Below are positions 18,091 to 59,434 of a DNA stretch of 64,000 bases, piece after piece. Below the pieces are notes generated by a model. The model was not told where the DNA came from. It was given only the letters and a program-made list of their open reading frames with translations, and made no database searches. The first letter of the stretch is position 1, and every line of letters starts with the position of its first letter. Source of the DNA: a virus; the IMG/VR virus record IMGVR_UViG_3300042731_005759, positions 64,001 through 128,000 of that record; one strand, given 5' to 3'. Both the position numbers and the translations under genes were made by a program.

Positions 18091-18123
18091 ATACTCATTT
18101 TGTTATTGATTATATTTATTAGT

Positions 18124-20410: not shown

Positions 20411-20469
20411 TTTTTCTTTTCTGTATTATTAATAATTAGGGAAAATAGGTTCCAATCTATTTATATGAT

Positions 20470-27314: not shown

Positions 27315-27315
27315 G

Positions 27316-28230: not shown

Positions 28231-28256
28231 AAATAATATTTATTAATTAAAAGATT

Positions 28257-29174
28257 ATGGCAGTAGGTAGTTATGGAACGGTAAGACCCGCAGATGTGTC
28301 TCCGTCAGACATAGAAATTTTTTATCACTATGTTTCTGGTAGGACATCAACGGCACCCGTTCAGTTTAAAAAATTAGATTCAGAGGACGTTTTAACTCCT
28401 ATCTACCATGGTGATAGAAATGATACTCTTGAGACTGGTGTTTCTACAACAGAATTAATCGGTGGACTTTACAATTTAAAATTAGATTCTGCGGATTTTG
28501 ACGATTTAGGTGTGTATACATTACATATTAGACCTAAACAAATTAGAACATCAATAACCGATTGTGGTATTCTAGCTTCATTACCATCGGTAAGAGGAAT
28601 AATAATCGATTTGAGTAACGTACCATCTGATGATAGAAATAAATTTACCCCACAAGGATTAGTGGGATATAGAATTGAGTATATCAACAACGACGGTACT
28701 AAACTTCCTAATTTCTATAGGGTAGTTACCTCATCTTTTTACTGTACACCAATTACATCAAACTTGACTAATTCAAGTCAGAAGGCAATCAGATATCAAT
28801 ATACTGATCAGTCTACTAATTTGTTGTTTTTGACAGTAACACCATCGTCAGCACCATCAAACAGACCGAATACGGTACCGTTTATTGGTGAACCATCACA
28901 GAACATAGTTCTATCAAATACATTTTTCAATCCTACAACTTTAGAAGTTGAAATGGTTGAACATGATGATACTACATTGGCTTACGCATTGTATGGTAAC
29001 CAATCTAAATCAGTATCTGATGGTATTTACACAGTTTACGACGGTGCAAACAATATCTACAAACAATTTAACTTGTTTGAGATCAAAGATGAGTTCAACG
29101 AAACACTATTTGAGGTTAGAGAGGAAAGGGACGAAATCGATACAACTAAAGATTTTGATGATATCACTCAATAA
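28257..29174 (+). CDS. Putative baseplate/structural protein
   Basis: 305-aa ORF with TATTTATT late motif upstream, coupled to the wedge gene. Confidence 0.6.
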
Positions 29175-32100
29175 TGGCAAAAAGAAAAGTTCCAAGTCAG
29201 GCGGCAAGTGGAAGGGAGACCTTTAACGACAACTTGATCGGTAATCAGATTACTGATGGATCAAGCCAATTGACTGCGACGAACTTTTCGGTTGAAAAGA
29301 CATTACCACAGAGAGATTCCAAAAAATTTAAGACAACACCATTTTCAGAATATCTAACTTTAGATGATCTAAATGAAGAAAATGATGCACCAACTACCAC
29401 ATCATCAACAAGTGATGATGATAAAACGGTAAAATTCAATGCATCTAAAGAAAATGGTAGTAAATCACTTTATGGTTCTTTAAGAGAGAGAATTTCCATC
29501 TCAGTAAAAAGAATTATAAATAAATTTCCCGCGGGTTTTTACGTAGACAAGGACACTCCAATCTCTTCAACAGAGTACACGGCAGAAAACATTGTATACA
29601 ATTCCAAAACCTATGAAACAACATTAAAACTTGAAAATTCTAAGATTTTTAACCCACATGATGTTGTTTTAGTAAAACCCAAAAGTAATACTCAACCCGA
29701 GGTTGAGAATACATTTAAAAACTTCTATGATCACTATAAAAAATATACATTAGTTATTGGTGAACAGACCTATAACATTGTAAGTTTCACAGAAGTAGAC
29801 AGTACTGGTTTCATTACATTAAAAGTTAAAGGAAATCCTTTTAATGGAAATAGTACTTACACTGAAAGTTTTTTAATAAGACCTGTAGATTCTGTCGTCG
29901 AAGAATTTTTCAAAAATTTAGATGATTTAGAATCCATTTTATTAAACCGAGAGTCGACACCTAAGTACACGTCGAAATTTGTCGTTCCACAAGATTCTTT
30001 AGATGGTTCAAAAACTGAAAACAAAACGTTAAGGTTTACTTGGCCATTATTTAAGGATGGGTGGAACATAAAAATCACTGGTAACTCTTATGTTGAATAC
30101 CTAAGAAGACTCAGTGATGTTGGTCAAGAAATAGACAACTACAAATCAAATTTAATTGTTAGATTTTTAACTACTGCCTCTCTCAATGAATTTGATACTC
30201 CAGATCAAAGAATCGCGTCTATTTTCAAACTATACGGACAAAGCTTCGACTCTATCAAAAAGTTTATTGATAATGTTTCTTACATGAGAAATGTAAGTTA
30301 CGATGGTATCAATAACGTTCCTGATGTTCTCCTTAAAAACTTATCAAACACATTAGGTTTAACCGATGTTAAACTTTTTGATGATAAGTCTTTGGAGGAT
30401 ATTCTCTATTCGAGAATTGATAGTCAGTACGAAGGTGTTGATCTTGGTAAAAATGTGATTGAGGCGGAAACAGAGTTCTATAGACGAGTCTTAGTAAACT
30501 TAGCACACATATATAAATCGAAAGGTACAAGAAACGCAATTGAGTTTTTCCTTAGATTTTTAGGTGCACCTGAACCTTTAATTAAAATTGAGGAATATAC
30601 CTACAAATATGATGAGGTTAGAAAGAACGTAAGTGATATCGATAGTGATATTTACGATCTTATTCAGGACGAAAAGACGTTTACTATTGCAGAATTACAA
30701 ACCACGGGATTTACTTACTTAAATACTGTTACAACAGGACTTACGTCATATAAAGAGACTGAGTTCCCAATTAATGTTGAAAGTAGTGGTAGTACTAAGT
30801 ACGGTGATGTACAACAAATTGTAAGTGAGACTAATGATACCTTTTTTGAAAAAGGTGCGGGTTGGTATGATATAACTTTACAACACAGATCATCATTAGA
30901 GTTAGATACTGAAAATTCAGATTTACTATCCACACCAAAAGTTATAAAAACAAAAAATAAAGACTATACCTACGGGGAGGATTACTTTGACTTATTTAGA
31001 CAGTTTGATGGTTTAGATTATGGTTATGAATTACATAATACTGTCGATAACAATAAAACAGAATTATTAGGTGATTTAGATTCAAAAACACTAAATAGAA
31101 AAAATATACAAGTTTATATTTCTTCTGCACAAGCATTAGATCATGATGTTTATAGAAAATCAAGAGAATTAGGTGTAAGTTTTGGGACAAATACTTTAGA
31201 ACCACAAACAGGTTTTACGTTCGCGGAATATATAGATCAAGTTTTAAACGAACAAATTAGAAATTCACATGTAGTAAAACATCAAAAAAGTTATATACAA
31301 CTTGAAGACATTTATCTAAGTTATTTAGATAAAGTATCGGACCCATATAGTAATCCAACAGTAAGTGAGTTCATTAATAAGATCAGTCCATATTGGGTAC
31401 AACTTATTGAACAATTTATTCCTGCGACAACATTATGGACGGGTGGTAATATTATTGAGAATCATAATTTAGGTAGGTCTAAATACGAATATAAAAAACC
31501 ATGTAGGATAACAGAATTTACTGAAAATCTATTCCCTGATTTCGAATTGGCAATTGAAGAGGATTTAGAAACAGTCTTAGGTGACCCCGATATTTTTAGG
31601 GGACTAACTGTTGTGAGCGGTGTAACATATAATTTACATATAGATTTTAATGGGACAACATATACTTCAAACAGTCTGTTAACACTAAGTGGTGAAACAC
31701 AGAGTATAAATCAAGTAAATGTTTGTAGTAATAATTTTACACATGCGGGATTATTCGAACCATATCCTGTAAATTCAGAGTGTTCAACTCTACTTAGTTC
31801 AGACTTTAATGGGGTTCCTTTTGATAAAACAATACACTTACCCCTTACTTGTGATTTTAAGTGTTATTTAAAACCACAAAGAGAAATATTAGAGTGTCTT
31901 TGGGTTGATAAAGTACAGGATATTATAGACAACCAAATCAATAGTCAATACTATAGAAAAACTTATTACTCAAATGGTCAAACTAATATATCTAATCACG
32001 CGGGGTGGGTCGATTATGAACTAACAGGAAATACACAGACCGAAACAAACTACCAAAATGAACTCACAAGTAATGGTGAGTCGTATAGTTGTGAGGTCGC

Positions 32101-35100
32101 ACCTATTCTTTCATATAAAATATTCACAGATACTGATGGTATAAAGAAAATAAGTGTCACACCTATTAAATACGACGTACCATTATATACTGACAATACT
32201 TGTAGAACTGAGGCGGATATTGATTGTTTAGATGGAGATACTTTTGATTTCTATTTTGATACATTTTACTTAACAGGAACAACCTGTTGTAATCCACAGG
32301 TAGATGTGTATGGACCGAATAAATTTTATACCCTACCTGAGGATGAAGATGAATGTATCCTCATGGAGGATGTATACTTCAAGGTTTCAGGAATTACTTT
32401 CGGAAACGAAGATATTGTTGATGATGGAGATCCATGTACAACTTGTCCACCATATAATACAACATGGCCAACAAACATTTTTATCAATTGTGTTGGTGGA
32501 TATAACGAATCAATTTCAGGTAATACAACATTACAAGAAGACCAAACAGTTGAATGGGTATCGGGTTGTACTTTCGTTATAAGAAATGTAAGAGAAAATG
32601 ACGTAATAGACATAACTATCACTGACGCGGCTAACTGCGATCAAAAAGTTAGAATTGATGGATTACAACAAAAATTTGAGTGGGATCCTATTGATGGTGA
32701 CGATGTTACCGAATCACGTAGTCATTTTTTCCAATACACAATCGATTCTTATTTAGAAGGTGAGGATTACCCAACTCACGATCCATCAGTAAGTCAAAGT
32801 GGTATAACATTCTGTGATAATTTTTCAGGATATACCCTACACCCAACGGTACAATATAGACCTACTTTTGATTATGGTCTAAAACAAAATACTAAGGTCA
32901 TTAAAATTAACAATGGTGTTATTATAGATGACGAAAATACTTGGGTAGATGTACAGAATTATTTCCAAGATAATACATTAGAGTTAATCGATGTTGAAGA
33001 TGTTCAAATAGGTGATAGATTACTTTCAGGACAATATCTTAACTGTCCTTTCAGTTCAAGTGATTATACAAACGCAGTACTGAGTGGTTATTCATTTAGT
33101 TACAATTACTTAACCGTTGAAGTGGACAATAAAGATTGTTTAGGATCAACAAAAGTAAATGTGATTAATGAAAGATTTAGAGTTTTACCAAATTCTAAAT
33201 TAAGGGTAATGACACAGGTGGGAGATCATTGGGAGTTTACAGAAAAATATCCTGAAGAATTAATAGTGAGACCACCTGAACCAACAGAACCTTGTTGTAA
33301 TTACGGTGTAGACTATTATAAAAAAGGTGATTTACTAATAAACGAATTAGGTTTTCCAATCGAGGTAACCTCATTAGATTTAGATTATTGTCAAAGAGAT
33401 TTATTTTATCATCTGAATGTTAGTGCTGTTTACAGACAACCATCAAATACATTAAGTATTGTTCCTGATAATCCTTTTGGTGTTTCCACAGAATGTTGTA
33501 CGGAAGTTATATTATTTAATGGTGATGTTGACGATCAAATATTGGTAGAATATGATGAACAAATATTTGAAAATTTAGATCTCAGTTCACAACAATATTA
33601 TCAAGACCAATTAGATTGTGTTGATGAGCCAACAATCGAAGATTTAGAAAGACCCGAATATACGGAAAACTGTAATGATCTAAATGCGTTTATTGGTATA
33701 CATTATACTGATGGTAACCAAATATTAATTGAGTATGATGAATCGTACAATATTGGTAATATAGTTCAAGTATCAGAGATTAACTCACAACTAACAGAAT
33801 ACCTCTCACCAGGTATGGATTGTTATGAACTAACAGGAATAGCATACTCTGAAAATATTACACATCAAATACTTTCTATATGTACTGATTTGATAACACC
33901 AACAGCGTCTCCCGCACCAACAGGAACACCAACTCCAACACCAACAATTACTGCTAGCCCAACACCTTCACCATCACCTTCAGAAACACCTGAACCTACC
34001 CCTTCACCAAGTCCTAGTGAGACTCCATCACCAACATCAACGCAAACTCCTACACCATCACCTTCACCAAGTGAGACCCCTGAACCTACTCCTTCACCAA
34101 GTCCAAGTGAAACTGCAGAACCTACACCAACACCTTCAGAAACACCTGAACCGACTGCAAGTGAGACGCCACAACCAACAAGTAGTAGTACGCCAGAACC
34201 AACACCAAGTACTACACCTGATCCAACACCATCACCTTCACCTAGTCCATCACCATCACCGAGTCCTTCTCCAAGCCCAAGTCCATCACCAAGTGCAACG
34301 GCAAACTGTGACTTCGATGTTGATATAGACATTGCGACTCCAACCCCCACAAATAGTAGTACACCAGAACCAACACCTAGTCCATCCCCTTCACCTAGCC
34401 CATCTCCATCACCAAGTCCTACAGTTACTGCAAACTGTGACTTTGACGTTGATGTAGATATTGCTACTCCTACACCAACACCATCTCCATCACCTAGTCC
34501 TTCTCCGTCGCCAAGTCCTTCTCCGAGTCCAAGTGCAACGGCAAACTGTGATTTTGACATTGATATAGATATTGCAACACCAACACCTACACCAACAAAT
34601 AGTAGTACACCTGAACCTACCCCTAATCCTACATCAAGTCCTACACCATCACCTAGCCCTTCACCTTCACCATCACCAACACCTAACTGTGATTTCGATG
34701 TTGATATAGACATTGCAACTCCGACTCCGACTCCTTCACCATCACCGAGTCCTTCTCCGAGTCCGAGTCCAAGTGCAACTGAAAACCCAACACAAACACC
34801 AACACCATCCCCAAGTCCTACGCCAAACTGTGACTTTGACGTTGATGTAGATATTGCAACTCCTACGCCAACACCTAGCCCTTCCCCTTCACCTAGTCCA
34901 TCACCATCACCATCACCAAGTACTACACCTGAATCAACACCAACGCCTTCACCTAGCCCATCCCCTTCACCAAGTCCAAGTCCAAGTGCAACGGCAAACT
35001 GTGACTTTGATATTGATATAGACATTGCAACTCCGACCCCAACACCTACAAATAGTAGTACACCTGAACCTACTCCTAATCCTACACCATCACCAACTGT

Positions 35101-36631
35101 AAGTGTAACTCCTGACGCAACACCTAATCCAACGTCTACACCACCTGCAACGGAAAATCCAACACCTACTCCTAGTAGTACTGCAATTCCGACTCCAACA
35201 CCATCACCTAGTCCGTCACCGTCACCATCTCCGAGTCCTACACCAAACTGTGATTTTGATATTGATATAGATATTGCAACACCTACACCGACACCAAGCC
35301 CATCACCTTCACCTAGTCCATCACCATCCCCTTCACCTAGCCCAAGTGTAACACCTGATCCTACATCAAGTCCAACACCATCACCTAGTCCATCACCATC
35401 ACCAAGTCCTACACCTAATTGCGACTTTGATGTTGATGTAGATATTGCGACTCCTACGCCAACACCAACAAATAGTAGTACACCTGAACCTACCCCTTCA
35501 CCAACACCAAGCAGTACTCCAAACCCTACAGCGAGTCCTACTCCAAGTAGTACTCCTAACCCTACGGCAAGTCCTACCCCAAGTCCTACCCCTAATCCTA
35601 CAGCGAGTCCTACACCATCACCAAGTGTAACTCCTGATCCAACTCCTACGCCTTCACCTAGTCCATCACCAAGTCCTTCACCAAGTCCAACACCTAATTG
35701 TGACTTTGACGTTGATGTAGATATTGCTACCCCTACACCAACACCATCTCCATCACCTAGTCCATCACCATCACCGAGTCCTACCCCAAGTAGTACTCCA
35801 AACCCTACAGCGAGTCCTACTCCAAGTAGTACTCCTAACCCTACTGCAAGTCCAACACCTTCACCTAGCCCATCACCAAGTCCAAGTGCAACACCAAACC
35901 CTACACCATCACCTAGCCCATCTCCATCGCCAAGTCCAACACCAAACTGTGATTTCGATGTTGATATAGATATTGCAACTCCTACTCCTACACCATCACC
36001 ATCTCCGTCGCCTTCACCTAGCCCATCGCCAAGTCCTAGTCCATCACCATCGCCAAGTAGTACACCAAATCCAACTCCTACACCAACACCATCTCCATCG
36101 CCATCACCGTCTCCGTCACCATCACCTAGTCCAAGTCCGACTCCAAGTCCGACCCCTAGTCCTACTGCAGTAGATTGTCCACCTAGTTGTGGTACACAGA
36201 TCTATAAAAACTCATATGTACCAACAGGTAGTACTTCATCTGTTAGTACAATTAAGGATCTCGGTGGATACTGTACTGAAAATAGAGTGGATGGTGATAT
36301 AGTATCTACAAGTGGTGCAGAATGGGTATATAATACAAATAATTGTGTTGTATATGTTAGATCTTATAGTGGAGGATCAAGTAGTACGTGTGTTGGTGAG
36401 TATGTAACACCTACAGGAACTGAGGTTAGTTCATTTGTACACACTGAAGGTACGTTAACACCAACAGGAAGTAATAAATTATACGATACAGGAATCAGAT
36501 ATATTGACTCTAATAATAACGCAATTGTGATTGTGACTGAATGGAATTCATCACTAATGGATTTAGTTAGAGTTTGGGTATTATGTGATTGTAGTTTTGA
36601 AGGTGAAGTAATAGAAAATTTTGAAGGATGA
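29174..36631 (+). CDS. Giant baseplate wedge protein (gp7/P2 gpI-like domain) with degenerate HINT domain and ~750-aa Pro/Ser/Thr stalk
   Basis: [14 protein letters not shown] and [29 protein letters not shown] (gpI/gp7 motif); HINT-like segment at 32876-33553; PS/PT repeats at 33896-36166. Confidence 0.75.
33896..36166 (+). repeat. Pro-Ser/Pro-Thr low-complexity coding repeat with 10 NCDFD[VI]D[VI]DIATP modules
   Basis: Read directly from DNA and translation. Confidence 0.95.
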
Positions 36632-36671
36632 TAGACTATAAAATTGAAAAATTAAACTATATATTTTAATA

Positions 36672-39600
36672 ATGAGTCAGGTAAGATATTTTGATGTAAC
36701 AATTAGTTCGGGAACCTCACATAGTACATATATTATATACTATGATCAGGTTAACGCGTCTAATATTGCCACAAGAGTATCAACTAATTTACCTGCAACA
36801 GGAGTTACATATTCAGATTTAACTTCACTTAATGGTGTTAGAGTTCAAGTACCTTACACTGCAACAACAATATTATTGTATAATAACTCATGTGTTGTTG
36901 ATGACGAAATTATCTTACCAACACCAATTCCCACATCTACACCTACACCCACTCCTTCCCCAAGCCCATCACCTAGTCCATCACCTTCACCTAGTCCATC
37001 ACCAAGCCCTACACCATCCCCAAGCCCAAGCCCATCCCCAAGTCCAACACCTAATTGTGACTTTGATGTAGACATAGATATTGCAACTCCCACACCAACC
37101 CCATCACCTTCACCTAGCCCATCACCTAGTCCGTCCCCATCACCAACACCAAACCCTACACCAAATCCAACACCATCCCCAAGCCCAAGCCCATCACCTT
37201 CACCTAGTCCATCACCAAGTCCTACACCGACATTTAGTCCAACTCCAAGTGCAACACCAAACCCTACTGCGAGTCCAACACCATCTCCTAGCCCGAGTCC
37301 ATCACCAAGTCCAACACCGTCACCAACACCTAATTGTGACTTCGATGTGGACGTAGAAATGAATTTAGCACCTACAGGGTTTACACCATTTGCTTTTCAA
37401 CAGTTTGAAAATACGGCAACAGGTACAACGATAGCGACACTTTCAGCAAGTGATCCTGATTCGGGTGATACACATACATTTAGTTTAGTGTCAGGTTCAG
37501 GTAGTACAGATAACGCATCATTTACTTTATCAAGTGCAGGTGTTCTTAAAAATGCAGTAGTATTCAACTATGAAACAAAATCAAGTTATTCGATAAGAGT
37601 AAGAGTTACAGATCAAGGTGGACTAAGTTTTGAAGGTACAAGAACAGTATCAGTTCGTAACGTAAATGAAACTCCGTATGGATTGACATTAAGCAATAAT
37701 ACACAGAATGAGAATACCGCAACAGGTACAACCATCGGAACGTTCTCAGGTTTAGATGTTGATAGTGGTGAAACATTTACATATACACTTTCGGGAAGTG
37801 GTAATGATAACGCATCATTTACTTTATCAAGTGCGGGAGTTCTTAAAAACGCGATAGTATTCAATTACGAAGTTAAAAATTCATATAGTATCGAAGTAAC
37901 GGTTACTGATAGTGGTAATAACACCTATACTGATACATTTACAATTTCAGTCCTTGATGTTAACGAAACACCTACTAATATTACTTTATCAAGTTCATCT
38001 ATAGATGAGAATGTACCAACAGGGACTACAATTGGAACATTTAGCTCATCAGACCCTGATAGTGGAAATACCTTTACATATAGTTTAGTAAGTGGAACAG
38101 GATCATCAGGAAATGGTAGTTTTTATATCGATGGTACAAGTCTGAAGAGTAATGTTGTATTTGACTATGAAACACAATCATCTTACTCTATAAGGGTTAG
38201 ATCGACAGATCAAGGAGGTCTTTACGTAGAAAAAATATTAACAATATCGATTACAGACATATCAGTATCAGGTACTGCAACAGTCACAAACTTAAATTGT
38301 TATAATGATTCCTCAGGAACAATTGAAGTCACTTCTCAGTCAGGGGGTGACTCACCATACACATATTCAATTAATGGTATATCGTATCAATCATCAACGT
38401 CATTTACAGGTTTGGGGGCAGGAACTTATACAGTATATATTAAAGATGATAATGGTGAAATAGGTACGTTATCAAAAACAATAACACAACCACCCGTACT
38501 TTCAGTGACTGATTCACACACAGATCCAACATGTTATGGAGGAAGTGATGGTGAAATTGTCTTTAGTGTTGCTGGTGGTACAGGTGAAAAAACATATACA
38601 ATAAATGGGGATGTAACAACAGATACAACTCATACAGGTTTGACTGCGGGTACATATACTTTCATTGCGACAGACGAAAATGGATGTACTGATAGTAGAT
38701 CGGTTACTTTGAGTGTAACGCAAGTGTCAGTTAATTTTGACGGAAGTGATGTTAGTTGTAATGGTGATTCAGATGGTAGTATTAGGGTTTTCTGTCCAAC
38801 AGGTGGTAGTGGATCGGGATACGAAGTCAAAATAGGGTCCAATGCATATCAAAACTTACCAACTGGTTGTGGTTTTGGTGATGGAGTAAATTACACGGCA
38901 TTAACTGCAGGTACATACACTATCACAGTAAAAGATGGGGATGGTTGTGAAAGACAATATACAAGAGTAATAACAGAACCTACTACTTTATCAGCATCTG
39001 CAAGTGGTACTCTACCAACCTGTAGTAATAGTTCAGATGGTACAATAACAGTAACCGCCAGTGGTGGTACATCACCATATGAGTATGATTTAGCGAATAC
39101 AGGTTACCAAACCTCAAACGTATTCAGTAACCTAAGTTCAGGTTCATATACAGGTAGGGTAAGAGATAATAATGGGTGTATTGGGGCGTTTAGTGTTGAT
39201 ATCACAAGAACTCAAGTGTCTGCAACAGTAACACAAACAAATGTTACTTGTAATGGTGATGATGACGGAACAATAACTGTTACAAGTCCATCAGGTGGTA
39301 CAGGTACAGGATACGAAGTAAAATTAAATAGTAATGGTACTTATGTAAATCTTGAGACAGAAACATATAGTAATTTGGCACCAGGAACATACACAGTTTA
39401 TGTTAAGGATAGTAATGATTGTGAAAGAACATATAGTATAACAATAACTGAAAATGCGGTGGTGACCGCAAGTGTTACATCAACAGACCCAACATGTTTC
39501 GGTAATACTGATGGTAGTATAACAGTAACGGGATCAGGTGGAACAGGATCATATACTTACAGTATTGGAAGTGGTTACCAAGCATCAAATACTTTTACCA

Positions 39601-41903
39601 ATTTAGGAAATGGTGCATATAATATATCAGTTCAAGATAGTAATGGTTGTATAGGTACAACCACAAGAATCCTATTGAAACAAGAAGTTTCCGCAACAGT
39701 AACACAATCTAATGTTACTTGTAATGGAGGATCAAATGGATCCATTACGGTATCCTCACCTACAGGTGGAAATGGTGTCCCATATAGTGTAAAATTAAAT
39801 AGTGGTTCTTATACAACAACATTCCCTAAAACTTACTCGAGTTTAAGTGCGGGGACGAACACTATAACCGTTAGAGATACTGACGGATGTACAAAAGAAT
39901 ATAGTATTACTATTACAGAACCAACTGCGGTTAATGTTACATCAAGTTCTGTGACACATCCAACATGTAATTACAGTAGTGATGGTGAAATAACAGTAAG
40001 TGCTACGGGTGGAACAGGCACTAAACAATATTCTATTAACGGTCTTTTATATCAGTCTTCAGGGACATTTACAGGATTAAGTGTTGGATCTCATACATTA
40101 TTTGCAAGAGACGAAAACAATTGTGTTGATACGGTATCGGTGACACTAAGTAAATCTCAGGTTACGGCAACCGTAACTCACACAAATGCAAGTTGTAATC
40201 TTGCAGATGGTGGTGGTTCGGGTACAATCACAGTATCCTCACCTACAGGTGGAAATGGAGGCACATACCAATCTAAATTGAATAGTGGGTCTTATACAAA
40301 TATAGGTACGTCAAAAACATATAGTAATGTGTCCGCAGGGACACACACAATTACCGTAAAAGATGGTAGTGGGTGTACAACATCATATTCTGTGACGATA
40401 ACACAACCAAACGCACTTACAATAGGGAGAACCATGGTAAACCCAACCTGTAGTAATAGTTCAGATGGATCAATAACATGGACAGTTGGGGGAGGAACGT
40501 CACCGTACTCATATACATTAAATGGTGATGTAACTGAAACCCTATCACATACAGGATTAACAACAGGTAGTTACACTTTGGAAGTAACAGATGATAACGG
40601 TTGTACAAAATCACGATTAGTTACGTTGAGTAAATCAGCGGTAACCGCATCATATAGTGTCAATAACCCTCTTTGTAATGGTGAATCAAATGGATCTGTA
40701 GAAATCACATCAATTACAGGAGGTAATGGTGGAACCTACCAATATCAATGGGATGGTGGAACATGGACAAACTTCTCAGGTTCCGCAATAATAGGTTTTC
40801 AATCTGCGGGAACATATACATTAAAAGTGAGAGACAGTCAACAATGTACAACAACATATTCTGTGAACTTAGGTCAACCATCAGCCCTTAATTTAAGTCT
40901 ATCACCAACAGGTCCAACGTGTTGGGATGGTAGTGACGGAGAAATTACTGTTACTGGTACAGGTGGAACTTCACCATACACTTATAAAATCGGTTCAGGT
41001 AATTACCAAATCTCAAATACATTTACTGGTTTAACTGACGGATCATACATAGTTACAATAAGAGATGCGAATAGTTGTACTAATTCGGCAAGTACTACGG
41101 TATCTACATCAGCACCATCGGCAACATTTACAACAACGGATGTTTCTTGTAATGGTGGTTCTAATGGTTTAATAAATGTTGCAAATCCAACAGGTGGTAG
41201 TGGATCGGGATATTACCATAGACTTAATAATGGATTATGGGTATTAACTTTCCCTTACAATTATGGTGCTTTATCCGCGGGAACATACACAATCGATATA
41301 AAGGATGGTGATTCATGTGAAAAGTCTTACAGTGTCACCGTGTCTCAACCTACAGCGGGTACCGCATCTATTTTAAGTTACGTATCTGGTAGTAATGGTT
41401 CTATAACTGTTACATCCTCAGGAGGTACATGGAATAAAACTTATAGATTATATGAAGATACTGCGTCACCTTATACAAATAGTGGGGGTGTACTAACAGC
41501 CACAATCACAGGTGTTACCTCATCAAATCCATCACAAACATTCTCCAACCTCTCCGAAGGTTACTATTACGTTGTTATAACTGACGCTAATGGTTGTACC
41601 GCAACATCGGCAGTACAAAGTACTTTCGCAGGTTCAGTAGGAGATCTTAAAATTAGTAGGTGTGGTGATAGTGTAATATACTATGCAAATAGTCAATTTG
41701 GTTGTAGTGAAGGGAACGATCTATTGATGCCATTTGGATTTAATATTGGAGATATAGTTCAATTTGCGGTAGGGACGGATTGCCCACACGGTACTACTTA
41801 TTGTGGTGAAATAACAGCAACTGATCAAAGTAATGAATCAACAGCAATATTAACAAGTGAATTTACACAGGATGATTGTAACTCACCTGACTGTAATGAA
41901 TAA
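36672..41903 (+). CDS. Adhesin-like fibre protein: shared N-domain, PS/PT linker with 2 NCDFD motifs, 3 cadherin repeats, ~14 SprB repeats, Cys-rich C-domain
   Basis: Cadherin: [21 protein letters not shown]...[20 protein letters not shown]...VNETP. SprB: TCxGxxDGxITVxxxGGTxPYxY...GLxAGTYTxxVxDxNGC. Confidence 0.85.
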
Positions 41904-41966
41904 ACAAATAAAAACTTTTTTGAAAAGTATGATATTTATTAATAAAGATTTTAAAACTAAAAAATT

Positions 41967-42509
41967 ATGGCTTATCAAGTAACATTTACATTAAATGCGT
42001 TGTACACAGGTACAACGGAAGCGGACAACTTTACAATAGTTGGGAAACATTCAAACGGTTCCCCCGCAGATACAACAATAGCAACAGGGGTCGCTAAGGC
42101 GGATTTAATCGCGGGAGTAACCTACCAAGTTGCAGATACAATAACAGGAGGTACAGTAACCTCAACAGGGACATGTACTAATTCTGTGAATTGGGTTGGA
42201 CAAGGAGGTGCGGCACCAACGGCAACACCACAAGCAACACTAGGACCAACGGCAACACCATCGGAAATTTCATATTACCAATTTAGTTACTGTGATACTG
42301 GTGATCAACCACAAGGAGTTACAACTGTTGACGTATCATCAGATGAGTTAACGGCAGCAGGATTTAATGCATTACCATCACCAGGTAACCCAACTCTTGA
42401 ATTCCAAGGGTTAGGTGGTTGTTATGAATACAGACAGGTAGAAGCAAGTAGTAGTGATGGTCGTCTCATTTTGACCGTGAACGAATGTACTTGTGATGAG
42501 TCGGCATAA
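41967..42509 (+). CDS. Small modular appendage protein (shared N-domain, PT linker, Cys-rich domain)
   Basis: ATGVAKADLIAGV N-domain motif; [16 protein letters not shown] linker; YYQFSYC...CYEY...CTC. Confidence 0.75.
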   Translation: MAYQVTFTLNALYTGTTEADNFTIVGKHSNGSPADTTIATGVAKADLIAGVTYQVADTITGGTVTSTGTCTNSVNWVGQGGAAPTATPQATLGPTATPSEISYYQFSYCDTGDQPQGVTTVDVSSDELTAAGFNALPSPGNPTLEFQGLGGCYEYRQVEASSSDGRLILTVNECTCDESA

Positions 42510-42540
42510 TTCAAAAACTAAGTCATAAAGTTTATATTAA

Positions 42541-42565
42541 AAAACCCTCACTCGAGGGTTTTTTT
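42541..42565 (+). terminator. Intrinsic terminator (possibly bidirectional)
   Basis: AAAACCCTC-ACTC-GAGGGTTTT followed by further Ts, with an A-run upstream. Confidence 0.8.
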
Positions 42566-42593
42566 ATTTCTATTATAAAAGTATTTATAACAT

Positions 42594-43889
42594 ATGGGAT
42601 TAGTAGTTAGGTTATATGACATAGTTTCACCCAATAAATTCAAGTTGAGTATTGGGTTATCACCGTATGGTAATTTTGATCAAATAGTGGGATCAGAAGC
42701 CAATGGATATTTTCTACCGTCAACTACGGGAACTACAGACACCACCCATAGAAATTATAGGACAGATCCTATATGTATAACAGATAATAACCCCGAGATT
42801 ACGGGTTCAACATGTTCTGTATATGAATCTTTGACATTTGATACGAGATATTTTCTGAAATTAGAGGATACATCAAATCTTGTAAATCAATGTGATACTA
42901 ATCCATGTATTGATAATACGGAAAAGAGACATATAATTGAAAGTATATATATCAGTGATAGTAAGACGTTTGATTGTTATGACAAGATTAAATTTGATGT
43001 GGATTATGTATGTTTAACTCCCACACCTACTCCAAGTGCAACACCTAATCCAACCCCTAATCCTACTACATTACCGAATCCAACCCCCAACCCAACACCT
43101 GAACCTACCGCAAATCCAACACCTAATCCTACCGCAGATCCAACACCACAACCAACACCTCAGTGTTTACGTTACATAATAACAGTCACTGACCAAAAGG
43201 TTGCATTAGTAGTAACGTATACGGATTGTGCGACTGGTTTAACAGATACGGAAACTATAAATCCATCAACATCTGAAACCCTTTGTTCACTAACTCAACC
43301 AGTGAGATCATCAGGTACCCTACAATACTACATTGGTGAGGGTACAGATAACTGTGCAAATGCACCTACTCCGAATCCAACACCTAATCCTACCGCTAAC
43401 CCAACACCTAATCCAACTGCGGAACCTACACCTGAACCAACACCTGAACCTACAGGTTTATGTATAGAAGTTTCAGATTTTGTGGCGAGAACTGACTTAT
43501 CAACAACTTTTACTTGGGAAGACTGTGATGGGAATAGTTATAGTATGAATATACCTGCAGGAGACGCGGCACCACCTTCATCGGGGCCATGTGTTAGACA
43601 AGGTACTGTATCATGGGTACCATCAGGCGGAAATGCGAGGGTAGACTTAGCGATAAGTCCTTCAGGACTTTGTGATGGTGGTGAACCAGTTACAACACAG
43701 TGTTATAATTACACATTATCAGTACCTAGTATGGGTGAAACTACGAGTACTTTCTCATATACCGCATGTAATGGAGACGAGAGGACATGGACAGGATTGT
43801 CTGGTGATAATACATCAGTATGTGCACAAGATGGTACGGTAAGTGTAACATCGGGACCTGGAACATACTATAAAGGAAGTGCATGTTAA
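42594..43889 (+). CDS. Modular appendage protein with PTPN linkers and three Cys-rich domains
   Basis: Translation; TATTTATA motif 4 nt before the ATG. Confidence 0.75.
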   Translation: MGLVVRLYDIVSPNKFKLSIGLSPYGNFDQIVGSEANGYFLPSTTGTTDTTHRNYRTDPICITDNNPEITGSTCSVYESLTFDTRYFLKLEDTSNLVNQCDTNPCIDNTEKRHIIESIYISDSKTFDCYDKIKFDVDYVCLTPTPTPSATPNPTPNPTTLPNPTPNPTPEPTANPTPNPTADPTPQPTPQCLRYIITVTDQKVALVVTYTDCATGLTDTETINPSTSETLCSLTQPVRSSGTLQYYIGEGTDNCANAPTPNPTPNPTANPTPNPTAEPTPEPTPEPTGLCIEVSDFVARTDLSTTFTWEDCDGNSYSMNIPAGDAAPPSSGPCVRQGTVSWVPSGGNARVDLAISPSGLCDGGEPVTTQCYNYTLSVPSMGETTSTFSYTACNGDERTWTGLSGDNTSVCAQDGTVSVTSGPGTYYKGSAC

Positions 43890-43900
43890 TACAATAAAAA

Positions 43901-45181
43901 ATGGCAAGAAAGGTTAGGATAGATTTAAGTTTAGACAACACTCACAGTTTGAGTGATTTTCCTGTTGACTTATATAGTGGAACAACTAGTGGGACTACAA
44001 CTGAGTTAGTTTTTGCGAATATTACAGAGGGACCTGTAGTATTAGAAGTGGAAGACAGTGTTTTAAATATTGTCAATGGAGAGCACCCATTTTTCTATGT
44101 TAGGTTTTCTTCTGAAGGATGTCATGATGAAATTGTTAAAGTTCAAGTACCGAGAGTAGATTGTACTTTATGTGTTTCATTTATACCATATGGGTTTACA
44201 CCAACACCAAATCCAACGGAGACCCCATTACCTACTCCTGAACCTACTCCTAATCCTACTAATGAACCAACACCTAATCCTACTAATGAACCTACACCTA
44301 ATCCCACTCCTAATCCTACTAATGAACCAACACCTAATCCTACCGCAGATCCAACACCTGAACCTACACCTAATCCTACCGCAGACCCAACTCCTAATCC
44401 AACTGCAGAACCAACACCTAATCCTACACCGAATCCAACTGCGGAACCTACACCTGAACCAACAGAAAATATTATAGTTGCGGGTGTAAGATTGACTATT
44501 CCTTATACAAATTCGGAAGACGCATGTGCTGGTAGTAATAAAAACCAAAGTAATCACGCATATATCCTTGAAGGATCAAGTATATTCACATTAGTCAACG
44601 GGTATTTACTAATCGACGGAAGTCAACTTACGATGGTAGGATCGGTGGATTATGATTTATATTATGGTGATGAAACAATTTCAACAAACTCATTAGAACA
44701 GAGTATAGGTACAGTAAATGGTGCGTCACCATCGGGATGGTATTTAGTTGATTCGACTTCAACTACAAATATACCTTTAAGTTCGAAAGTATTAGCAACA
44801 GTAAATGACACGTATAATCCAACAACAATAAGTTTTAGTCTTTGTGTAACCCCTGAACCAACACCCGAAGAAACACCAGCTGAAGAAAGTGGTTTAGTTA
44901 AAATTATAGATTGTGATCTGTTGGATGAAAATGGTCAAGCACCACCAGGGGCGAGTTACTATTTGATAGACCCAACTGAAACTTGTATATCAGGGCAATT
45001 ATCACTGACATCAACCTTATTATCTGCAGGGGATATTATATATTATCGTGTAGGTGATCAAACTTGTTCGGGATCCATTATGTGTGCTCAAGTACAGAAT
45101 GGAACCTTTACAGGTACACCAGATGCAACAAGGAGTGGTGAAAACATATTCCCATCTTGTAGTGAATGTTACATACCATAA
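43901..45181 (+). CDS. Modular appendage protein with PTPN/PTNE linker and Cys-rich C-domain
   Basis: Translation; C-domain ends CSEC. Confidence 0.75.
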   Translation: MARKVRIDLSLDNTHSLSDFPVDLYSGTTSGTTTELVFANITEGPVVLEVEDSVLNIVNGEHPFFYVRFSSEGCHDEIVKVQVPRVDCTLCVSFIPYGFTPTPNPTETPLPTPEPTPNPTNEPTPNPTNEPTPNPTPNPTNEPTPNPTADPTPEPTPNPTADPTPNPTAEPTPNPTPNPTAEPTPEPTENIIVAGVRLTIPYTNSEDACAGSNKNQSNHAYILEGSSIFTLVNGYLLIDGSQLTMVGSVDYDLYYGDETISTNSLEQSIGTVNGASPSGWYLVDSTSTTNIPLSSKVLATVNDTYNPTTISFSLCVTPEPTPEETPAEESGLVKIIDCDLLDENGQAPPGASYYLIDPTETCISGQLSLTSTLLSAGDIIYYRVGDQTCSGSIMCAQVQNGTFTGTPDATRSGENIFPSCSECYIP

Positions 45182-45230
45182 AAAATAAAAGTAATTGGAT
45201 ATAAAGAGTATTTATAATATAAAAGATTAA

Positions 45231-55682: not shown

Positions 55683-55729
55683 ACGGATTTAATTAAATAA
55701 TAAATTAAAAGAATAGATATTTATAACAT

Positions 55730-57136
55730 ATGGCACTTAGAAACGTAACATTAACAGGAACTACAATCGGGAGCGGAATCTCGAACGTAAGTATTTACCA
55801 CAGTTTTGTGGATCCGAGCAATTTAATACAGGCGGGAGTAACCAGTACACAATTGGCTAATGGTTACACCTTCCAAGATCAAGATTATAGATACACATAT
55901 TATGTTGTATCAGATTCTGCGTGTGGAACAAACACGAGAGTTGTTCTACCAAACGCACCAATAAGTACATTTACTGAAGGTCAAATCGTGGATATCAGTG
56001 ACAATGTTATAACACACGACATCACGGCAATAGGTAATACGATAACAGGTACTCAAAACGATTGGATGATTTTTACAGAATTTGGATCAACAAGCAACGG
56101 ACATATAGTTAGATCAGATGATAATGGACAGACTTGGATTAAAGAATCAAGTTCTTCTGCACCTGATAGAGCGATGGCATTTGTTAACAACAGTACCAAA
56201 TCAATCCAAGGTGGTGTATCTTATCCTGTATCCGTTGGTAGTTGGGCTTATAATGCTTATGGGTATTTTACATCAAATGGTGGTTCTAATTGGTCCCAAC
56301 AAAATTTAATGACTCGAGGTACTGTTAATAGTAGTGCATACAACTCAGGTTATGTTGGGTATTCTTTTCAAGATGTTCAGACAAGAACCACTGCTGAAGG
56401 GACTCAAAGAGATGGTCACAACAAATTTGTTTCCTATTTAGGGGCACAGTGGATGTCCACGACGGGACAGTATTTTTCAACAGACTATTCATACAGTCAG
56501 AAAAGTCATATTGATGAGTGGTTAAATAGTTCTAGCCCTGTAGCTACTTGGCAGAATCGTGATTCCAATGTTAGTGCATCAGGAGTTAGTCAATCTTTGA
56601 GAGGGTATGGGTGTAGACTAACTGATGAAACTGGTCTAGTGAAGATATTTGCAGGTGCATCAAGTGGTTATATGTTAAAAATAACGGTGGTTAATACCTT
56701 CACTGCGGTATCATCTGGTGAGTCAGGTACAAACCAATTAATAACTGCGGTTGGTCATAATCAAGAGGAACTCAACGAACATGGTCAGGATGGTTCTGAA
56801 ACTACATGGTTGGCAGCAATAGAAGACCCAAATCAAGCAGCTAACACACAGGAGTTTATTATGAGTACTGATGATGGTGATAATTGGGTTTCTTATACAG
56901 GAACTAATATGGACACGGATTATATATACGATATCAAATACATAAAAGGTAGATGGTATGCCGTTGGTAAGAAAGGAACCGAAGGTAGGATTTGTTCCAC
57001 TGCGGACTTAAACGATCCTTGGGAACAAATGGGTACAACAAAACCTTGTAAAACAATAGGTGTTGGTAGAGATATTGAAAACACAAAAATAATAATTGGT
57101 TGTGAAGAAGGATATATAGTACAGAATCAAGTTTAA
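55730..57136 (+). CDS. Shared N-domain plus BNR/Asp-box beta-propeller protein
   Basis: Asp-boxes RSDDNGQTW, TSNGGSNW and STDDGDNW; N-terminal IYHSFVDPSNLI...AGVTSTQL...CGTN. Confidence 0.7.
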   Translation: MALRNVTLTGTTIGSGISNVSIYHSFVDPSNLIQAGVTSTQLANGYTFQDQDYRYTYYVVSDSACGTNTRVVLPNAPISTFTEGQIVDISDNVITHDITAIGNTITGTQNDWMIFTEFGSTSNGHIVRSDDNGQTWIKESSSSAPDRAMAFVNNSTKSIQGGVSYPVSVGSWAYNAYGYFTSNGGSNWSQQNLMTRGTVNSSAYNSGYVGYSFQDVQTRTTAEGTQRDGHNKFVSYLGAQWMSTTGQYFSTDYSYSQKSHIDEWLNSSSPVATWQNRDSNVSASGVSQSLRGYGCRLTDETGLVKIFAGASSGYMLKITVVNTFTAVSSGESGTNQLITAVGHNQEELNEHGQDGSETTWLAAIEDPNQAANTQEFIMSTDDGDNWVSYTGTNMDTDYIYDIKYIKGRWYAVGKKGTEGRICSTADLNDPWEQMGTTKPCKTIGVGRDIENTKIIIGCEEGYIVQNQV

Positions 57137-57154: not shown

Positions 57155-59434
57155 ATGAGTTTTTTAAGTCAAAATAATGCAGAGTTTCTCTCAGCGAGGA
57201 TAACCCAAAAAGGAAGGAAATCTATTGCGGAAGGTAATTTCCAAATAAAGTTCTTTCAGATTGGTGATTCTGAATTTGACTACACAGCACCCTTTAATCG
57301 TTTAGATGGTATTCAAAATAATCCACAACAGAGTGTATTATCACCATTTGATAAAGACAGCCAAGTTAAATACCCGTATTTAATTGATACTGAGGGTACA
57401 ACAACATATGGTGTACCTATAATGGATTCAATCACTTCTACTATAAGAAATGGTATGGGTCCTGCGGGATTTATAACCGAATATAAACCATATGATGAAA
57501 CAGAATGTACAGGTACTACTGTGGAGTGTGCATCTATGAGATTACCATTAAATGGTTTTACAGGTACAAATGTTATCAGTTTCACAGAAACACAAGCTTA
57601 TTTGGATTGTAATAGTGGTTCACAAACTTCGATAGATACTAATAATTTATCTAGGTTTAATGGATGTGAATTCATTACAATTGTTTTTAATAATGAGTTT
57701 GTTAGTGAAGAACAAGTGGTCACAGGAAACTCCACAAGTAAGATATATAAAATAGTATCAATCAATACTGTAACAGGTACAACAACCACACCTCAATGTG
57801 ATAACGTAGTTACTGGTCAAACTACAATAACAATCGATAGACCAACACCTGATTTTTCAAATCACACAGGTTATGCAGAAGTTATCTGTAATAAATGTAA
57901 AATTGAACACCCATTAGAACCACAAACATCAACTGAATGTGTTTCGAGTCAAGTAGATCCGAGTGAACAACATGACCCATGGAAATTAAACGTTGTATGG
58001 AAAGAAAAACCAATCGGTGCTGATACTAATGGTATTGATGAAAGTTTAAGTGGATTCACAAGTAGTAAACATATATCCACAACAGAGTACTTAGGATATG
58101 GCTTATCTAATGGTCAGGTAACTAATACAGGTACTACATATTTTAATTCATATAGTGAAGAAATAACAGTAAAACCTGAAGAACAAAAATGTGTGGCAAT
58201 AGTACATTATAGTGAGTTAGGTCATATCTATGACGATCCCGATAGATTCTTTAAGTATGATGATTATATTGGTAGTTCAAATACTGAGGGTGTCTTAGTT
58301 GACGATGAAATTGTTACAGATGTTGAATTTTTTAATGTATATATTCCATTCATTTACTATGAAAATAGTACAGGAACAACAGTAGGTTCTGAATTTAAGA
58401 TGGACACTACTGATTATTATTTAGATTCAACTGTTGCGGGTACACCTGGTGATATTAGAACACAATATATAAAGTATAGGTATCTATTAGATGAGATAGG
58501 TAAAAAGGTAGGTAAAGTCTTCGTTGATAAAAAGATAATCGTATTCGATGACCAAGAATTGGTTTCATTATTAGAGTATCGTTCTAATAGGAGACACACC
58601 TTACCATCACCAAAAGTATATTCAATACCAAGTGAAAATTCTGCAGAAAACGCTTGTTTTGCGGGAACTACAGGACAAACGTATTGGGTAACTTACATGT
58701 TAACATATTCAGGTGACAAACAATTGAATGGTTTACCGTGTAATTACTTTACAAAAGTTGAGATAAATACAGAGGTTGATGGATGTGATATAACATATCC
58801 TTCTGATATTGCTTTCAAATTCGGAGGATCTTCAGACCATCCTAATGGGATAGGTTCTTTCCAACATCTAAAAACTGATTTATTAGATTCTACCGACGGA
58901 TATATTGCAGATACCTTTAAAGTTTTAATTCAAGAGACTACAAGTAATTCAGATTTACTACCAGATCCTAATCAATGGATTGAAATGGATTTTACATCTA
59001 AGATACCTAACCATACTGTTGGTAATTTAATTGATCCAACAAACTTAAGAGACCATAGTTTTACTATTTTACTTAGTGATATAGATGCGGGTTCTTTATT
59101 TGACCTTGAAGACTATTTGATTACAGGTACTAATAGTACAAATTATATTCCTGATGAACCATCAACAGATCCACAGTTTGGTGATGAACAACCATTCCCT
59201 GGTAGTGTAAAACTAGTAAGATCTTCAGACATAGAGGAATTAAGGTTCTTAGTCAATTTACCAAATACTCAATTTACAAATACACAGAATCCAACACACC
59301 ACAACGCGGCGACAAAAGTGGTTACTGAAGTGGCATTATTAGATCAAAATAAAAATGTTTTGATTAATGCTAAGACTTCCTCTCCGATTAAAAGAGTCGG
59401 TACCCAAGTATTTTCTGTAAAATTAGATTTTTAA
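57155..59434 (+). CDS. Tail fibre-attachment / collar-like structural protein
   Basis: N-terminal ARITQKGRKSIAEG.FQIKFFQIGD and C-terminal VTEVALLDQNKNVLINAK resemble the two halves of tail-collar fibre domains. Confidence 0.55.
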   Translation: MSFLSQNNAEFLSARITQKGRKSIAEGNFQIKFFQIGDSEFDYTAPFNRLDGIQNNPQQSVLSPFDKDSQVKYPYLIDTEGTTTYGVPIMDSITSTIRNGMGPAGFITEYKPYDETECTGTTVECASMRLPLNGFTGTNVISFTETQAYLDCNSGSQTSIDTNNLSRFNGCEFITIVFNNEFVSEEQVVTGNSTSKIYKIVSINTVTGTTTTPQCDNVVTGQTTITIDRPTPDFSNHTGYAEVICNKCKIEHPLEPQTSTECVSSQVDPSEQHDPWKLNVVWKEKPIGADTNGIDESLSGFTSSKHISTTEYLGYGLSNGQVTNTGTTYFNSYSEEITVKPEEQKCVAIVHYSELGHIYDDPDRFFKYDDYIGSSNTEGVLVDDEIVTDVEFFNVYIPFIYYENSTGTTVGSEFKMDTTDYYLDSTVAGTPGDIRTQYIKYRYLLDEIGKKVGKVFVDKKIIVFDDQELVSLLEYRSNRRHTLPSPKVYSIPSENSAENACFAGTTGQTYWVTYMLTYSGDKQLNGLPCNYFTKVEINTEVDGCDITYPSDIAFKFGGSSDHPNGIGSFQHLKTDLLDSTDGYIADTFKVLIQETTSNSDLLPDPNQWIEMDFTSKIPNHTVGNLIDPTNLRDHSFTILLSDIDAGSLFDLEDYLITGTNSTNYIPDEPSTDPQFGDEQPFPGSVKLVRSSDIEELRFLVNLPNTQFTNTQNPTHHNAATKVVTEVALLDQNKNVLINAKTSSPIKRVGTQVFSVKLDF

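Follow-up and report, generated by a model that had tools for sequence, protein, structure and literature searches.

A conserved, modular array of putative phage adhesins with Pro/Thr-rich linkers behind the baseplate genes of an uncultured marine jumbo myovirus

Introduction

Several large phages carry sets of receptor-binding proteins (RBPs). The Klebsiella jumbo phage phiKp24 has a branched multi-RBP system with 14 putative fibres (PMC9700779), CBA120 has a complex of TSP1-4 (PMC7506556), and dual- and multi-RBP phages of Klebsiella have been described (PMC6872550). Other forms of decoration are the capsid fibres of the Tenacibaculum phage PTm1 and the hairy tail of the Erwinia phage Y3 (PMC13282480), and mycobacteriophage virions are stated, in work cited in PMC11256854 (Freeman et al. 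2023), to be glycosylated. Here, we describe a locus in the 176-kb IMG/VR viral record IMGVR_UViG_3300042731_005759 (G000), bases 64,001–128,000 of which were analysed (the window, 64,000 nucleotides, whose coordinates are used throughout unless another source is named). It consists of a giant gene (ORF 29174-36631) and nine co-oriented genes behind it, and a sequence-only reading of the window had seen in these a mucin- or cellulosome-like appendage array rooted in the baseplate. In our analysis the locus probably encodes a virion-borne, modular array of adhesins or RBPs in which Pro/Thr (PT) linkers serve as joints. The multi-RBP systems are built from rigid trimeric spikes or fibres with T4gp10-like or XD-type adaptors, whereas this array has monomer-type adhesin domains on PT linkers of 50–470 residues and beta anchors of approximately 80–140 aa belonging to at least six types, with no detectable adaptor family.

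Marine Bacteroidota and other bacteria of the FCB (Fibrobacterota, Chlorobiota and Bacteroidota) group live on particles and algal polysaccharide gels, and very little is known about the means by which their large phages locate them and stay attached. The array is most likely an unusual and undescribed form of the multi-fibre host-recognition sets of large phages. No description of this architecture was found in the literature on PT-linker phage fibres and on SprB in virions, in a search that was incomplete and is not proof of novelty.

Results and discussion

Conserved anchors and variable tips in a nine-gene array

The genes of the array start at positions 36672, 41967, 42594, 43901, 45231, 46604, 48572, 51561 and 55730, all as given in the sequence-only reading, and their products are here called types A to I in that order. 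Long linkers of PT, Pro/Asn (PN) or Pro/Ser (PS) composition are present in seven of the nine products (80–470 residues using a simple composition mask). They had been said to be missing only from type I, which indeed has none, but type B is a further exception with a spacer of only about 20 residues. As claimed, none of the nine N-termini, which were read directly, is a Sec-type signal peptide, and no type IX secretion system (T9SS) sorting domain was found in these proteins by Pfam.

A survey of synteny and copy number in related phages, which had been proposed as a check, revealed that the six core types A to F, recognized by their N-termini, are syntenic in four relatives (G001-G004), with the gene order shuffled in G001, and that the orthologous stalks of the giant protein carry 9–22 copies of a short strand motif described below. 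The genome studied here and its Tara relatives add types G, H and I to the six core types, and the nine-gene array was found in three Tara Oceans scaffolds. The last gene of the array is followed in all relatives by that for a conserved closing protein of 759 aa (57155-59434, + strand), which is 72–74 % identical in G001-G004 and falls into no Pfam or PHROGs family.

Between genomes, the N-terminal domains (N-domains) are 40–84 % identical (69–84 % for type B). Outside the N-domains and linkers, types B, C, D and F are 0 % alignable at E < 1e-4, while types A and E retain part of their payload similarity. This combination of conserved anchor and variable tip is the usual signature of phage RBPs and host-range determinants. 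Tracts of PT-linker DNA of 29–56 nt are shared exactly between different genes, e.g. at 44408 and 46976, and are likely to be the joints at which payloads are exchanged; recombination there would explain how related phages come to have conserved anchors with replaced tips. The view that the array is modular was therefore borne out: it is a lineage-conserved set, directly behind the gp25-like and gp6-like baseplate genes, with conserved N-termini and exchangeable payloads.

A single shared N-terminal domain had also been proposed. However, the N-domains of the nine proteins fall into at least six sequence types and do not constitute one adaptor. When the types were compared using hhalign, only A and E were related (probability 99.2 %), and the types other than A, E and I scored <10 %. 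The type I N-domain aligns convincingly by eye with those of A and E (VDPSN and CGTN are in common), and its orthologue P0005 matches the A/E/I N-domain profile with an E value of 6.5e-16. No relationship to A/E/I, or to one another, could be demonstrated for the N-domains of types B, C, D, F, G (a fibronectin type III, FN3, domain) and H. When 1.84 billion representatives were searched with the A/E/I profile, 344 clusters at 50 % identity were recovered, 177 of them at E ≤ 1e-10. Almost without exception, the domain forms the N-terminus (residues 1 to ~85) of proteins ranging from 54 to 1718 aa. PT or PS linkers are present in 100 of the 125 proteins of at least 150 aa and directly follow the domain in 73. 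Pfam payloads in 97 A/E/I proteins include SprB (22 proteins), fn3, cadherin, VWA, the DUF5122 propeller and LamG, with no glycoside hydrolase among them. AlphaFold2 (AF2), supplied with a deep alignment, predicts N-domain A (residues 1–81) as a confident beta-sandwich with a predicted local distance difference test (pLDDT) score of 84–96. A three-copy complex prediction for the same domain (residues 1–90, deep alignment) scored 0.02, which speaks neither for nor against oligomerization.

A late-type, promoter-like motif

The promoter-like motif TATTTATA occurs at 22 sites on the + strand of the 176-kb record, 16 of which lie no more than 40 nt upstream of an ORF start. The ORFs preceded by it include those for terminase L, the head protease, the tail sheath, the tail tube and the gp25-like protein (motif at 18086-18093), ORF 20470 (20458-20465) and four array genes. 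The latter are 42594 (42582-42589), 45231 (45209-45216), 46604 (46577-46584) and 55730 (55718-55725), and sites with one mismatch precede 41967 and 51561, in agreement with an earlier count of six array genes with a late motif of their own. In four relatives, the orthologous genes of types B, C, E and F also have TATTTATA upstream. A terminator-like hairpin (11-bp stem and T run; 42539-42564, + strand) lies between types B and C, and a T run is also found at this position in relatives. Type D begins 11 nt after type C and hence is probably co-transcribed with it. Taken with the hairpin and the operon layout, the sharing of this motif with the genes for terminase, protease, sheath and tube places the array in the late, structural (virion-gene) regulon on promoter-like evidence, which is not proof that the products are in the virion. 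Sigma-70-type promoters were not enriched in the array (68 found, 80 expected).

A second conserved upstream element, GTATATATTTTAA, which is distinct from TATTTATA, is located directly before type A genes and the gene for the 759-aa protein (36650-36671 and upstream of 57155 in the window; also L039-L042). A weakly Sigma70_r2-like protein (233 aa, E 0.003), encoded next to a GT2 glycosyltransferase gene described below, is a candidate sigma factor of the phage for the recognition of TATTTATA.

The array proteins could alternatively not be virion parts but act inside the cell, or serve as adhesins or enzymes that are soluble or set free on lysis. The missing signal peptides are in keeping with this, and Cys-rich domains would fold poorly in the cytoplasm. 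Nevertheless, the late-type motif is common to the array and the terminase, sheath and tube genes, the genes sit inside the baseplate module, their anchors and tips evolve as those of RBPs do, and the SprB part of type A matches phrog_26672, annotated as 'virion structural protein' (E 8e-34). We therefore regard a role outside the virion as very unlikely.

The giant protein

The 2,485-aa product of ORF 29174-36631 (+ strand) is made up of a globular N-terminal body of ~1,573 aa (residues 1–1573, 29174-33892), a Pro/Ser/Thr tether of 761 aa (residues 1574–2334, 33893-36175) and a Cys-rich terminal knob of 151 aa (residues 2335–2485, 36176-36631), which is conserved in the L004 and L021 orthologues. 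The Pro/Ser/Thr stalk that had been reported as the end of this protein is thus real but is not terminal. Pro (34.6 %), Ser (23.3 %) and Thr (17.9 %) together account for 76 % of the tether, which is mucin-like in being a long Pro/Thr/Ser-rich repeat region, here with degenerate tandem repeats. A reach of ~230 nm had been calculated for it, and this figure holds as the contour length (761 × 0.31 nm) but not as the expected span, as the end-to-end distance of a flexible, unstructured and unglycosylated PT chain would typically be several-fold shorter.

The giant protein belongs to no family that could be found in Pfam, PHROGs, the PDB (phmmer), the ESM Atlas or by tblastn of 50,697 phage records. 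An AF2 model of body residues 1–800, built from a 24-row alignment, had a pLDDT of 37 and was discarded. The knob has no Pfam match, and a search of the Atlas gave only sub-threshold leads. In the G001 orthologue (L021:10001-18160) the conserved knob is followed by an extra vWA-like domain with a DxSxS motif. In a clade with 40 % identity the giant protein (L029:10001-18682; 2,894 aa) has linkers of the TPTQTLT type, five ~100-aa domain repeats (IPDKFEVYWDG...) and, at its C-terminus, SDGSIDNTFNIGTGF propeller-type repeats that are also found in the adjacent type F protein. Two antisense ORFs over the PT and motif repeats, 33865-35025 (386 aa) and 47035-47643 (202 aa), both on the − strand, are by-products of composition and not genes.

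The Cys-led strand motif

Embedded in the tether, at a spacing of 37–93 aa, are ten copies of a Cys-led amphipathic strand, N-C-D-F-D-[VI]-D-[VI]-D-I. With two copies in type A and ten in type F, there are 22 copies in three genes (29174, 36672 and 46604). The residues of the motif are fixed and the synonymous codons are free (AAC/AAT 11:11, GAC/GAT 12:9, TTC/TTT 7:15), and because synonymous codons differ between copies the motif is under selection at the protein level. The exact DNA pattern of this variant was found in only seven other IMG/VR contigs. Relatives have lineage-specific variants (NCDFGVDVDI, NCDFGVIVDI and DCDFGVDTDI), in all of which the Cys and the hydrophobic positions F3, V5, [VI]7 and I9 are kept but the Asp positions are not. 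As relatives retain the hydrophobic face but have Gly or Ile in place of Asp, the motif is unlikely to be a Ca2+-binding Asp ladder. The sequon for O-glycosylation in Bacteroidota, D-[ST]-[AILVMT], does not characterize the motif either, and export signals are lacking from the proteins.

In the branched brush or net proposed in the sequence-only reading, the array proteins may dock on these strands. The result would be a cellulosome-like branched net, with the giant stalk as scaffold and the array N-domains hanging on the NCDFD strands by strand complementation or disulfides. Besides the stalk, all type A proteins do have the strand, with 1–3 copies between the N-domain and cadherin domain 1, and the type A variant is the stalk variant of the same genome (both NCDFG.. 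in G001, both NCDFD.. in G000 and L002). In the AF2 model of type A, the second copy (residues 222–231) is ordered as a strand (225–231, pLDDT ~82) that abuts cadherin domain 1, so the strand may be able to join a folded unit. However, the copy at residues 129–138 is predicted to be disordered and does not dock onto the N-domain in cis, and gene conversion could equally give rise to the co-variation, as the linkers share exact DNA tracts. Furthermore, the N-domains are of six or more types, unlike the uniform dockerins of cellulosomes, and no Cohesin or Dockerin Pfam hit was obtained for the ten proteins (E ≤ 0.01). The number of motifs, 9–22, does not track the number of array genes (6 in relatives), and the 40 %-identity clade retains N-domain types C and F although five folded ~100-aa domains replace the motif strands in its giant protein. 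These arguments weigh against docking, and we consider a branched net improbable.

A different role for the strands, compatible with a virion-borne adhesin array, would be to structure the stalk. Pairing within or between chains, perhaps stapled by disulfides once the virion is in oxic seawater, would make the otherwise floppy PT tether a beaded or compacted stalk with a length set by the number of repeats. The conservation of the Cys and the hydrophobic face, but not of Asp, in all variants is in line with this, as are the protein-level selection, the range of 9 to 22 copies among orthologues, the regular, solenoid-like period of 19–23 residues between the ten copies in type F, and the Cys content of the array proteins (2.4 % vs 0.86 % in the other ORFs of the genome). 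Against it, the monomer model predicts disorder for an isolated motif, very long loops would result from the spacing in the giant protein, and the motif is absent from the divergent clade. The motif array of type F is absent from type F of the four relatives compared. The evidence on the motif is a better fit for a tether that is structured or cross-linked by strands than for a universal docking peg, and a structured stalk is a possibility that we put forward tentatively.

A further idea, which we think unlikely, is that of an undescribed adsorption apparatus in which extended, possibly O-glycosylated Pro/Thr tethers take the place of rigid trimeric fibres. The orphan Cys-led strand, maybe originating from the strand before cadherin 1, would zip tethers together or swap into partners, and length-tunable 'tentacles' would display SprB/cadherin adhesins derived from the host together with T9SS-type enzymes.

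Recurrence of the architecture in independent assemblies

With so many repeats, an assembly artefact, i.e. repeat-driven chimeras or collapsed repeats, had to be considered, and the sequence-only reading had itself named this as a way in which it could fail. Many of the shorter related contigs do end where the PT repeats begin, and because contigs break at repeats the exact repeat copy numbers may be unreliable. However, the giant-protein body was found at 36 IMG/VR loci from many metagenomes at 40–85 % identity, and all seven full-length orthologues, which come from different metagenomes, consist of the body, a PT/PS stalk with 9–22 strands and the same knob. The architecture also recurs on Tara Oceans scaffolds, among them ones of 135 and 304 kb. 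In addition, the DNA repeats are just 70–90 % identical and the reading frames are open throughout. The architecture recurs in independent assemblies and the probability that it is an artefact is negligible.

The baseplate genes and the site of attachment

The window encodes a gp25-like baseplate wedge subunit (18100-18576, + strand; Pfam GPW_gp25, E 2.6e-9; phrog_261) and a gp6-like wedge subunit (18578-20410, + strand; phrog_219, E 3e-21), 9–11 kb upstream of the giant gene and on the same strand. They are followed by five tightly packed, conserved ORFs (1255, 581, 444, 304 and 305 aa; 20470-29174, + strand), which form an operon-like block with the giant gene and are kept in all relatives. 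The intergenic gaps from ORF 20470 through the giant gene are −4, 0, 1, 26 and −1 nt, with the start codon of the giant gene overlapping the stop codon of ORF 28257. Because no gap exceeds 26 nt, the giant protein is probably produced from one transcript with the conserved post-gp6 block. Synteny and translational coupling suggest that the giant protein may be rooted in the baseplate. It had been identified as a baseplate wedge protein and does sit in the baseplate gene module, but no wedge family was found for it in Pfam, PHROGs or the PDB. The five preceding ORFs likewise have no Pfam, PHROG or PDB match, the PDB having also been searched with profiles of ORFs 20470, 24234 and 28257. Using hhalign, no relation was found between ORF 20470 and the protein of 1,265 aa encoded after gp6 in Flavobacterium phage immuto.

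A second cluster of PT-linker genes is located ~50 kb away in the record (G000 37227-45325), near head and tail genes, and encodes three proteins. One of 907 aa (L044:17227-19947) has ~430 linker residues and a LamG-like end. The second, of 684 aa (L045:1051-3102), has an N-terminal fibritin-like coiled coil and ~420 linker residues, with TATTTATA upstream of its gene, and the third, of 735 aa (L045:3118-5322), has a GDSGS serine-protease-like motif.

The array could therefore conceivably be a decoration elsewhere on the virion, in the form of capsid fibres or tail 'hairs' that stick to particles, gels or mucus and are not concerned with primary receptor recognition at the baseplate. Jumbo phages with such structures, PTm1 and Y3, are known (PMC13282480), the second cluster with its fibritin-like coiled coil lies near head and tail genes, and the payloads are generic adhesion domains. 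On the other hand, the array comes directly after the baseplate block and is closed by the 759-aa protein in all relatives, and its conserved anchors and hypervariable tips are typical of host-range determinants. Consequently, we assign this alternative only a small chance.

Payloads of the array proteins

Type A (36672-41903, + strand) consists of the N-domain, a PT linker with two motifs, three cadherin domains, approximately 12–13 SprB repeats and a Cys-rich end. Pfam detected SprB (PF13573, E 4e-79) in 12 stretches and Cadherin (PF00028, E 1e-25), and residues 231–332 of the AF2 model align to cadherin-23 and protocadherins (Z 13–14, root-mean-square deviation ~2 Å). Fold searches with the type A model were likewise dominated by cadherins. 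Type B (41967-42509, + strand; 180 aa) is the smallest, with an N-domain, the short spacer and a small Cys-rich domain. Type C (42594-43889, + strand; 431 aa) has a 140-aa N-domain, PN/PT linkers and Cys-bounded beta domains, and type D (43901-45181, + strand; 426 aa) an N-domain, an 89-aa PN/PT linker and a 238-aa payload. In type E (45231-46532, + strand; 433 aa) an A-homologous N-domain and linkers are combined with two Cys-rich domains of 76–84 aa, which are an internal duplication (E 1e-9), and a tip domain. Type F (46604-48562, + strand; 652 aa) has an N-domain, the ten motif copies and two small Cys-rich domains. An iterative hidden Markov model search for a family uniting the small Cys-rich domains recovered only the type E duplicates and orthologues.

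Type G (48572-51547, + strand; 991 aa) has an FN3 N-domain, a PT linker of >400 aa, small domains and a C-terminal cupredoxin. When the segments were scanned alone, fn3 (35.7 bits) and Copper-bind (22.5 bits, cut-off 21.2) were both above the Pfam cut-offs, and the protein matches phrog_9158 (E 4e-21) and phrog_677 (E 6e-12). All four type-1 copper ligand positions are present in the cupredoxin (51143-51544), with H...C-x2-H-x2-M at residues 977–983 and GGH upstream, in an amicyanin-like arrangement. Among its matches are domains at the C-terminus of further phage proteins (phrog_9158, phrog_27200 and phrog_677). The Pfam match and the ligand set identify it as a cupredoxin of the type-1 copper kind, which is predicted to bind copper.

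Type H (51561-55682, + strand) includes a 186-aa N-terminal region, a PT linker, a 355-aa domain, a further PT linker and a 678-aa payload resembling a right-handed beta-helix. The payload is 37–38 % identical over 99 % of its length (E ~1e-115) to proteins from metagenome-assembled genomes (MAGs) of Marinimicrobia and the FCB group. These cellular homologues have signal peptides, hits to Pel9A-like and GH141_M families (PF22842/PF21231) and T9SS sorting domains, whereas the phage copy has neither signal peptide nor T9SS sorting domain. The payload itself gave matches to Pfam GH141_M (E 0.02) and to PDB 9rx2, a 'parallel beta-helix repeat protein' (E 0.007). It is accordingly classed as a beta-helix homologous to T9SS-secreted Pel9A/GH141-like proteins, and any catalysis is predicted.

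Type I (55730-57136, + strand; 468 aa) has an A/E-like N-domain joined directly, with no linker, to a putative Asp-box propeller. There are two S-x-D-x-G-x-x-W boxes where four or more are the criterion, Pfam BNR has an E value of 0.65 and there is no PDB match, and the propeller is a weak prediction. The homologues of type I form only 6 clusters, all on phage-like contigs. Of the payloads predicted earlier, cadherin, SprB, FN3 and cupredoxin were thus recovered, the beta-helix was recovered through its homologues and the propeller remained weak. The glycanases that the array was expected to display come down to one Pel9A/GH141-like beta-helix and the weak propeller, and the wider family carries mostly adhesin domains.

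The phage and its host

The record is ~51 % complete according to CheckV, and all ORFs of note in the window are on the + strand. Replication and nucleotide-metabolism genes lie upstream of the baseplate genes and include those for a single-stranded DNA-binding protein (SSB), a UvsX-like recombinase, an exonuclease, DnaB, both ribonucleotide reductase subunits and a QueC-like protein. Neither Pfam nor PHROGs gave a match for two large ORFs at the start of the window, 11-1777 (≥588 aa) and 2087-7693 (1,868 aa). The record is from a myovirus, as it contains genes for terminase, head protease, tail sheath and tail tube elsewhere, and the label 'jumbo' is justified because related phages are found on contigs of 248, 262 and 304 kb. 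The closest cultured relatives of the gp6-like protein, from Flavobacterium phage immuto and Microcystis phage Mel-JY01, are 25 % identical. Hence, this is an uncultured marine jumbo myovirus that is only distantly T4-like.

The SprB/cadherin region has 16 cellular matches, every one of them from Bacteroidota. In addition, CBFHJJ010000001.1 (L053; 248,233 bp), which is labelled as part of a Flavobacteriaceae MAG, contains genes for types A (1,752 aa), B (180 aa) and C in order. It is a related jumbo phage binned into that MAG, and gives a faint hint on the host, which is probably an FCB-group bacterium, most likely one of the Bacteroidota, judging from these relationships.

On the minus strand at ~26.8–33.6 kb of G000 (L044:6802-8288 and L044:12399-13625) are genes for a GT2 glycosyltransferase (262 aa, 27.8 bits) and a weakly GT4/GT1-like protein (409 aa), and four glycosyltransferase genes are clustered at 202–206 kb of G006:C1, a contig from a related phage. 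These enzymes are candidates for glycosylation of the virion.

A putative host-adsorption module

The whole locus can be explained as the host-adsorption module of the phage. The body of the giant protein (~1,570 aa), a structural protein made with the post-gp6 block, would presumably form part of the baseplate periphery and give rise to the 761-aa tether, variable in length between phages, with its ten invariant Cys-led strands and ending in the Cys-rich knob. The six to nine downstream genes would supply monomer-style, 'beads-on-a-string' adhesins, each plugged into its own site on the virion by a type-specific N-terminal beta-sandwich. The PT/PN linkers would give flexible reach, and the distal payloads, judging by their domain families, would bind or cut polysaccharide and protein of the host surface or of particles. 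The sequences themselves show the architecture and its conservation, the late-type motif in common with virion genes, the pattern of anchors and tips, and which domains are present. Presence in the virion, the site of attachment, the oligomeric state, the binding targets and the role of the strand are all inferred here from the genes.

Several points weigh against this explanation. The giant protein and the five preceding ORFs match no baseplate family, so attachment could be to the head or the tail surface, and the second cluster near the head and tail genes indicates that the PT-linker design is not specific to the baseplate. Moreover, we know of no PT linkers, cadherin domains or SprB strings in classical trimeric fibres, and the explanation gives 22 conserved strands no specific role.

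The locus and the 344 or more clusters with one of its anchor domains point to a widespread and undescribed phage adhesion design, in which a conserved plug domain and a mucin-like spacer are combined with an interchangeable binding module that is partly copied from host surface proteins. Such a design would provide natural 'plug-and-play' joints for studies of host-range evolution in uncultured jumbo phages, and the short conserved strand in the tether lends itself to direct experiments on peptides and on recombinant segments of the stalk.

Comparison with known systems

The periphery of the T4 baseplate (gp6 to gp12) resembles the locus in its co-oriented gp25-like, gp6-like, large structural and fibre-like genes and in the late-type motif, but only the gp25-like and gp6-like proteins are recognizable and the giant protein is unlike gp7 to gp12. 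The glycosylated mycobacteriophage virions also combine phage glycosyltransferases with Ser/Thr/Pro-rich extensions of virion proteins; they differ in lineage and scale, and the link between glycosyltransferases and the PT stalk is a candidate one here.

The PT/PTS (Pro/Thr/Ser) linkers of cellulases, cellulosomal scaffoldins and mucins are of similar composition, are spacers between folded modules and allow varied payloads to be displayed together. The array differs in having no cohesin, dockerin or secretion signal. Its linkers may be glycosylated, as the genome encodes GT2 and GT4-like enzymes, and to our knowledge the embedded Cys-led strand has no counterpart. Type A resembles the SprB/cadherin-like surface adhesins of Bacteroidota, which are T9SS cargo, in its SprB repeats and three cadherin domains. 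However, the phage protein is without the signal peptide and T9SS sorting domain and has a phage-specific N-domain instead.

The multi-RBP systems of phiKp24, CBA120 and the Klebsiella phages have most in common with the locus. In these systems, as here, the RBP genes are clustered by the baseplate genes, conserved N-terminal anchors are combined with exchangeable C-termini, the number of RBPs differs between relatives and there is a beta-helix payload, one in this array. Though they are built from different parts, they are the closest functional analogues of the array.

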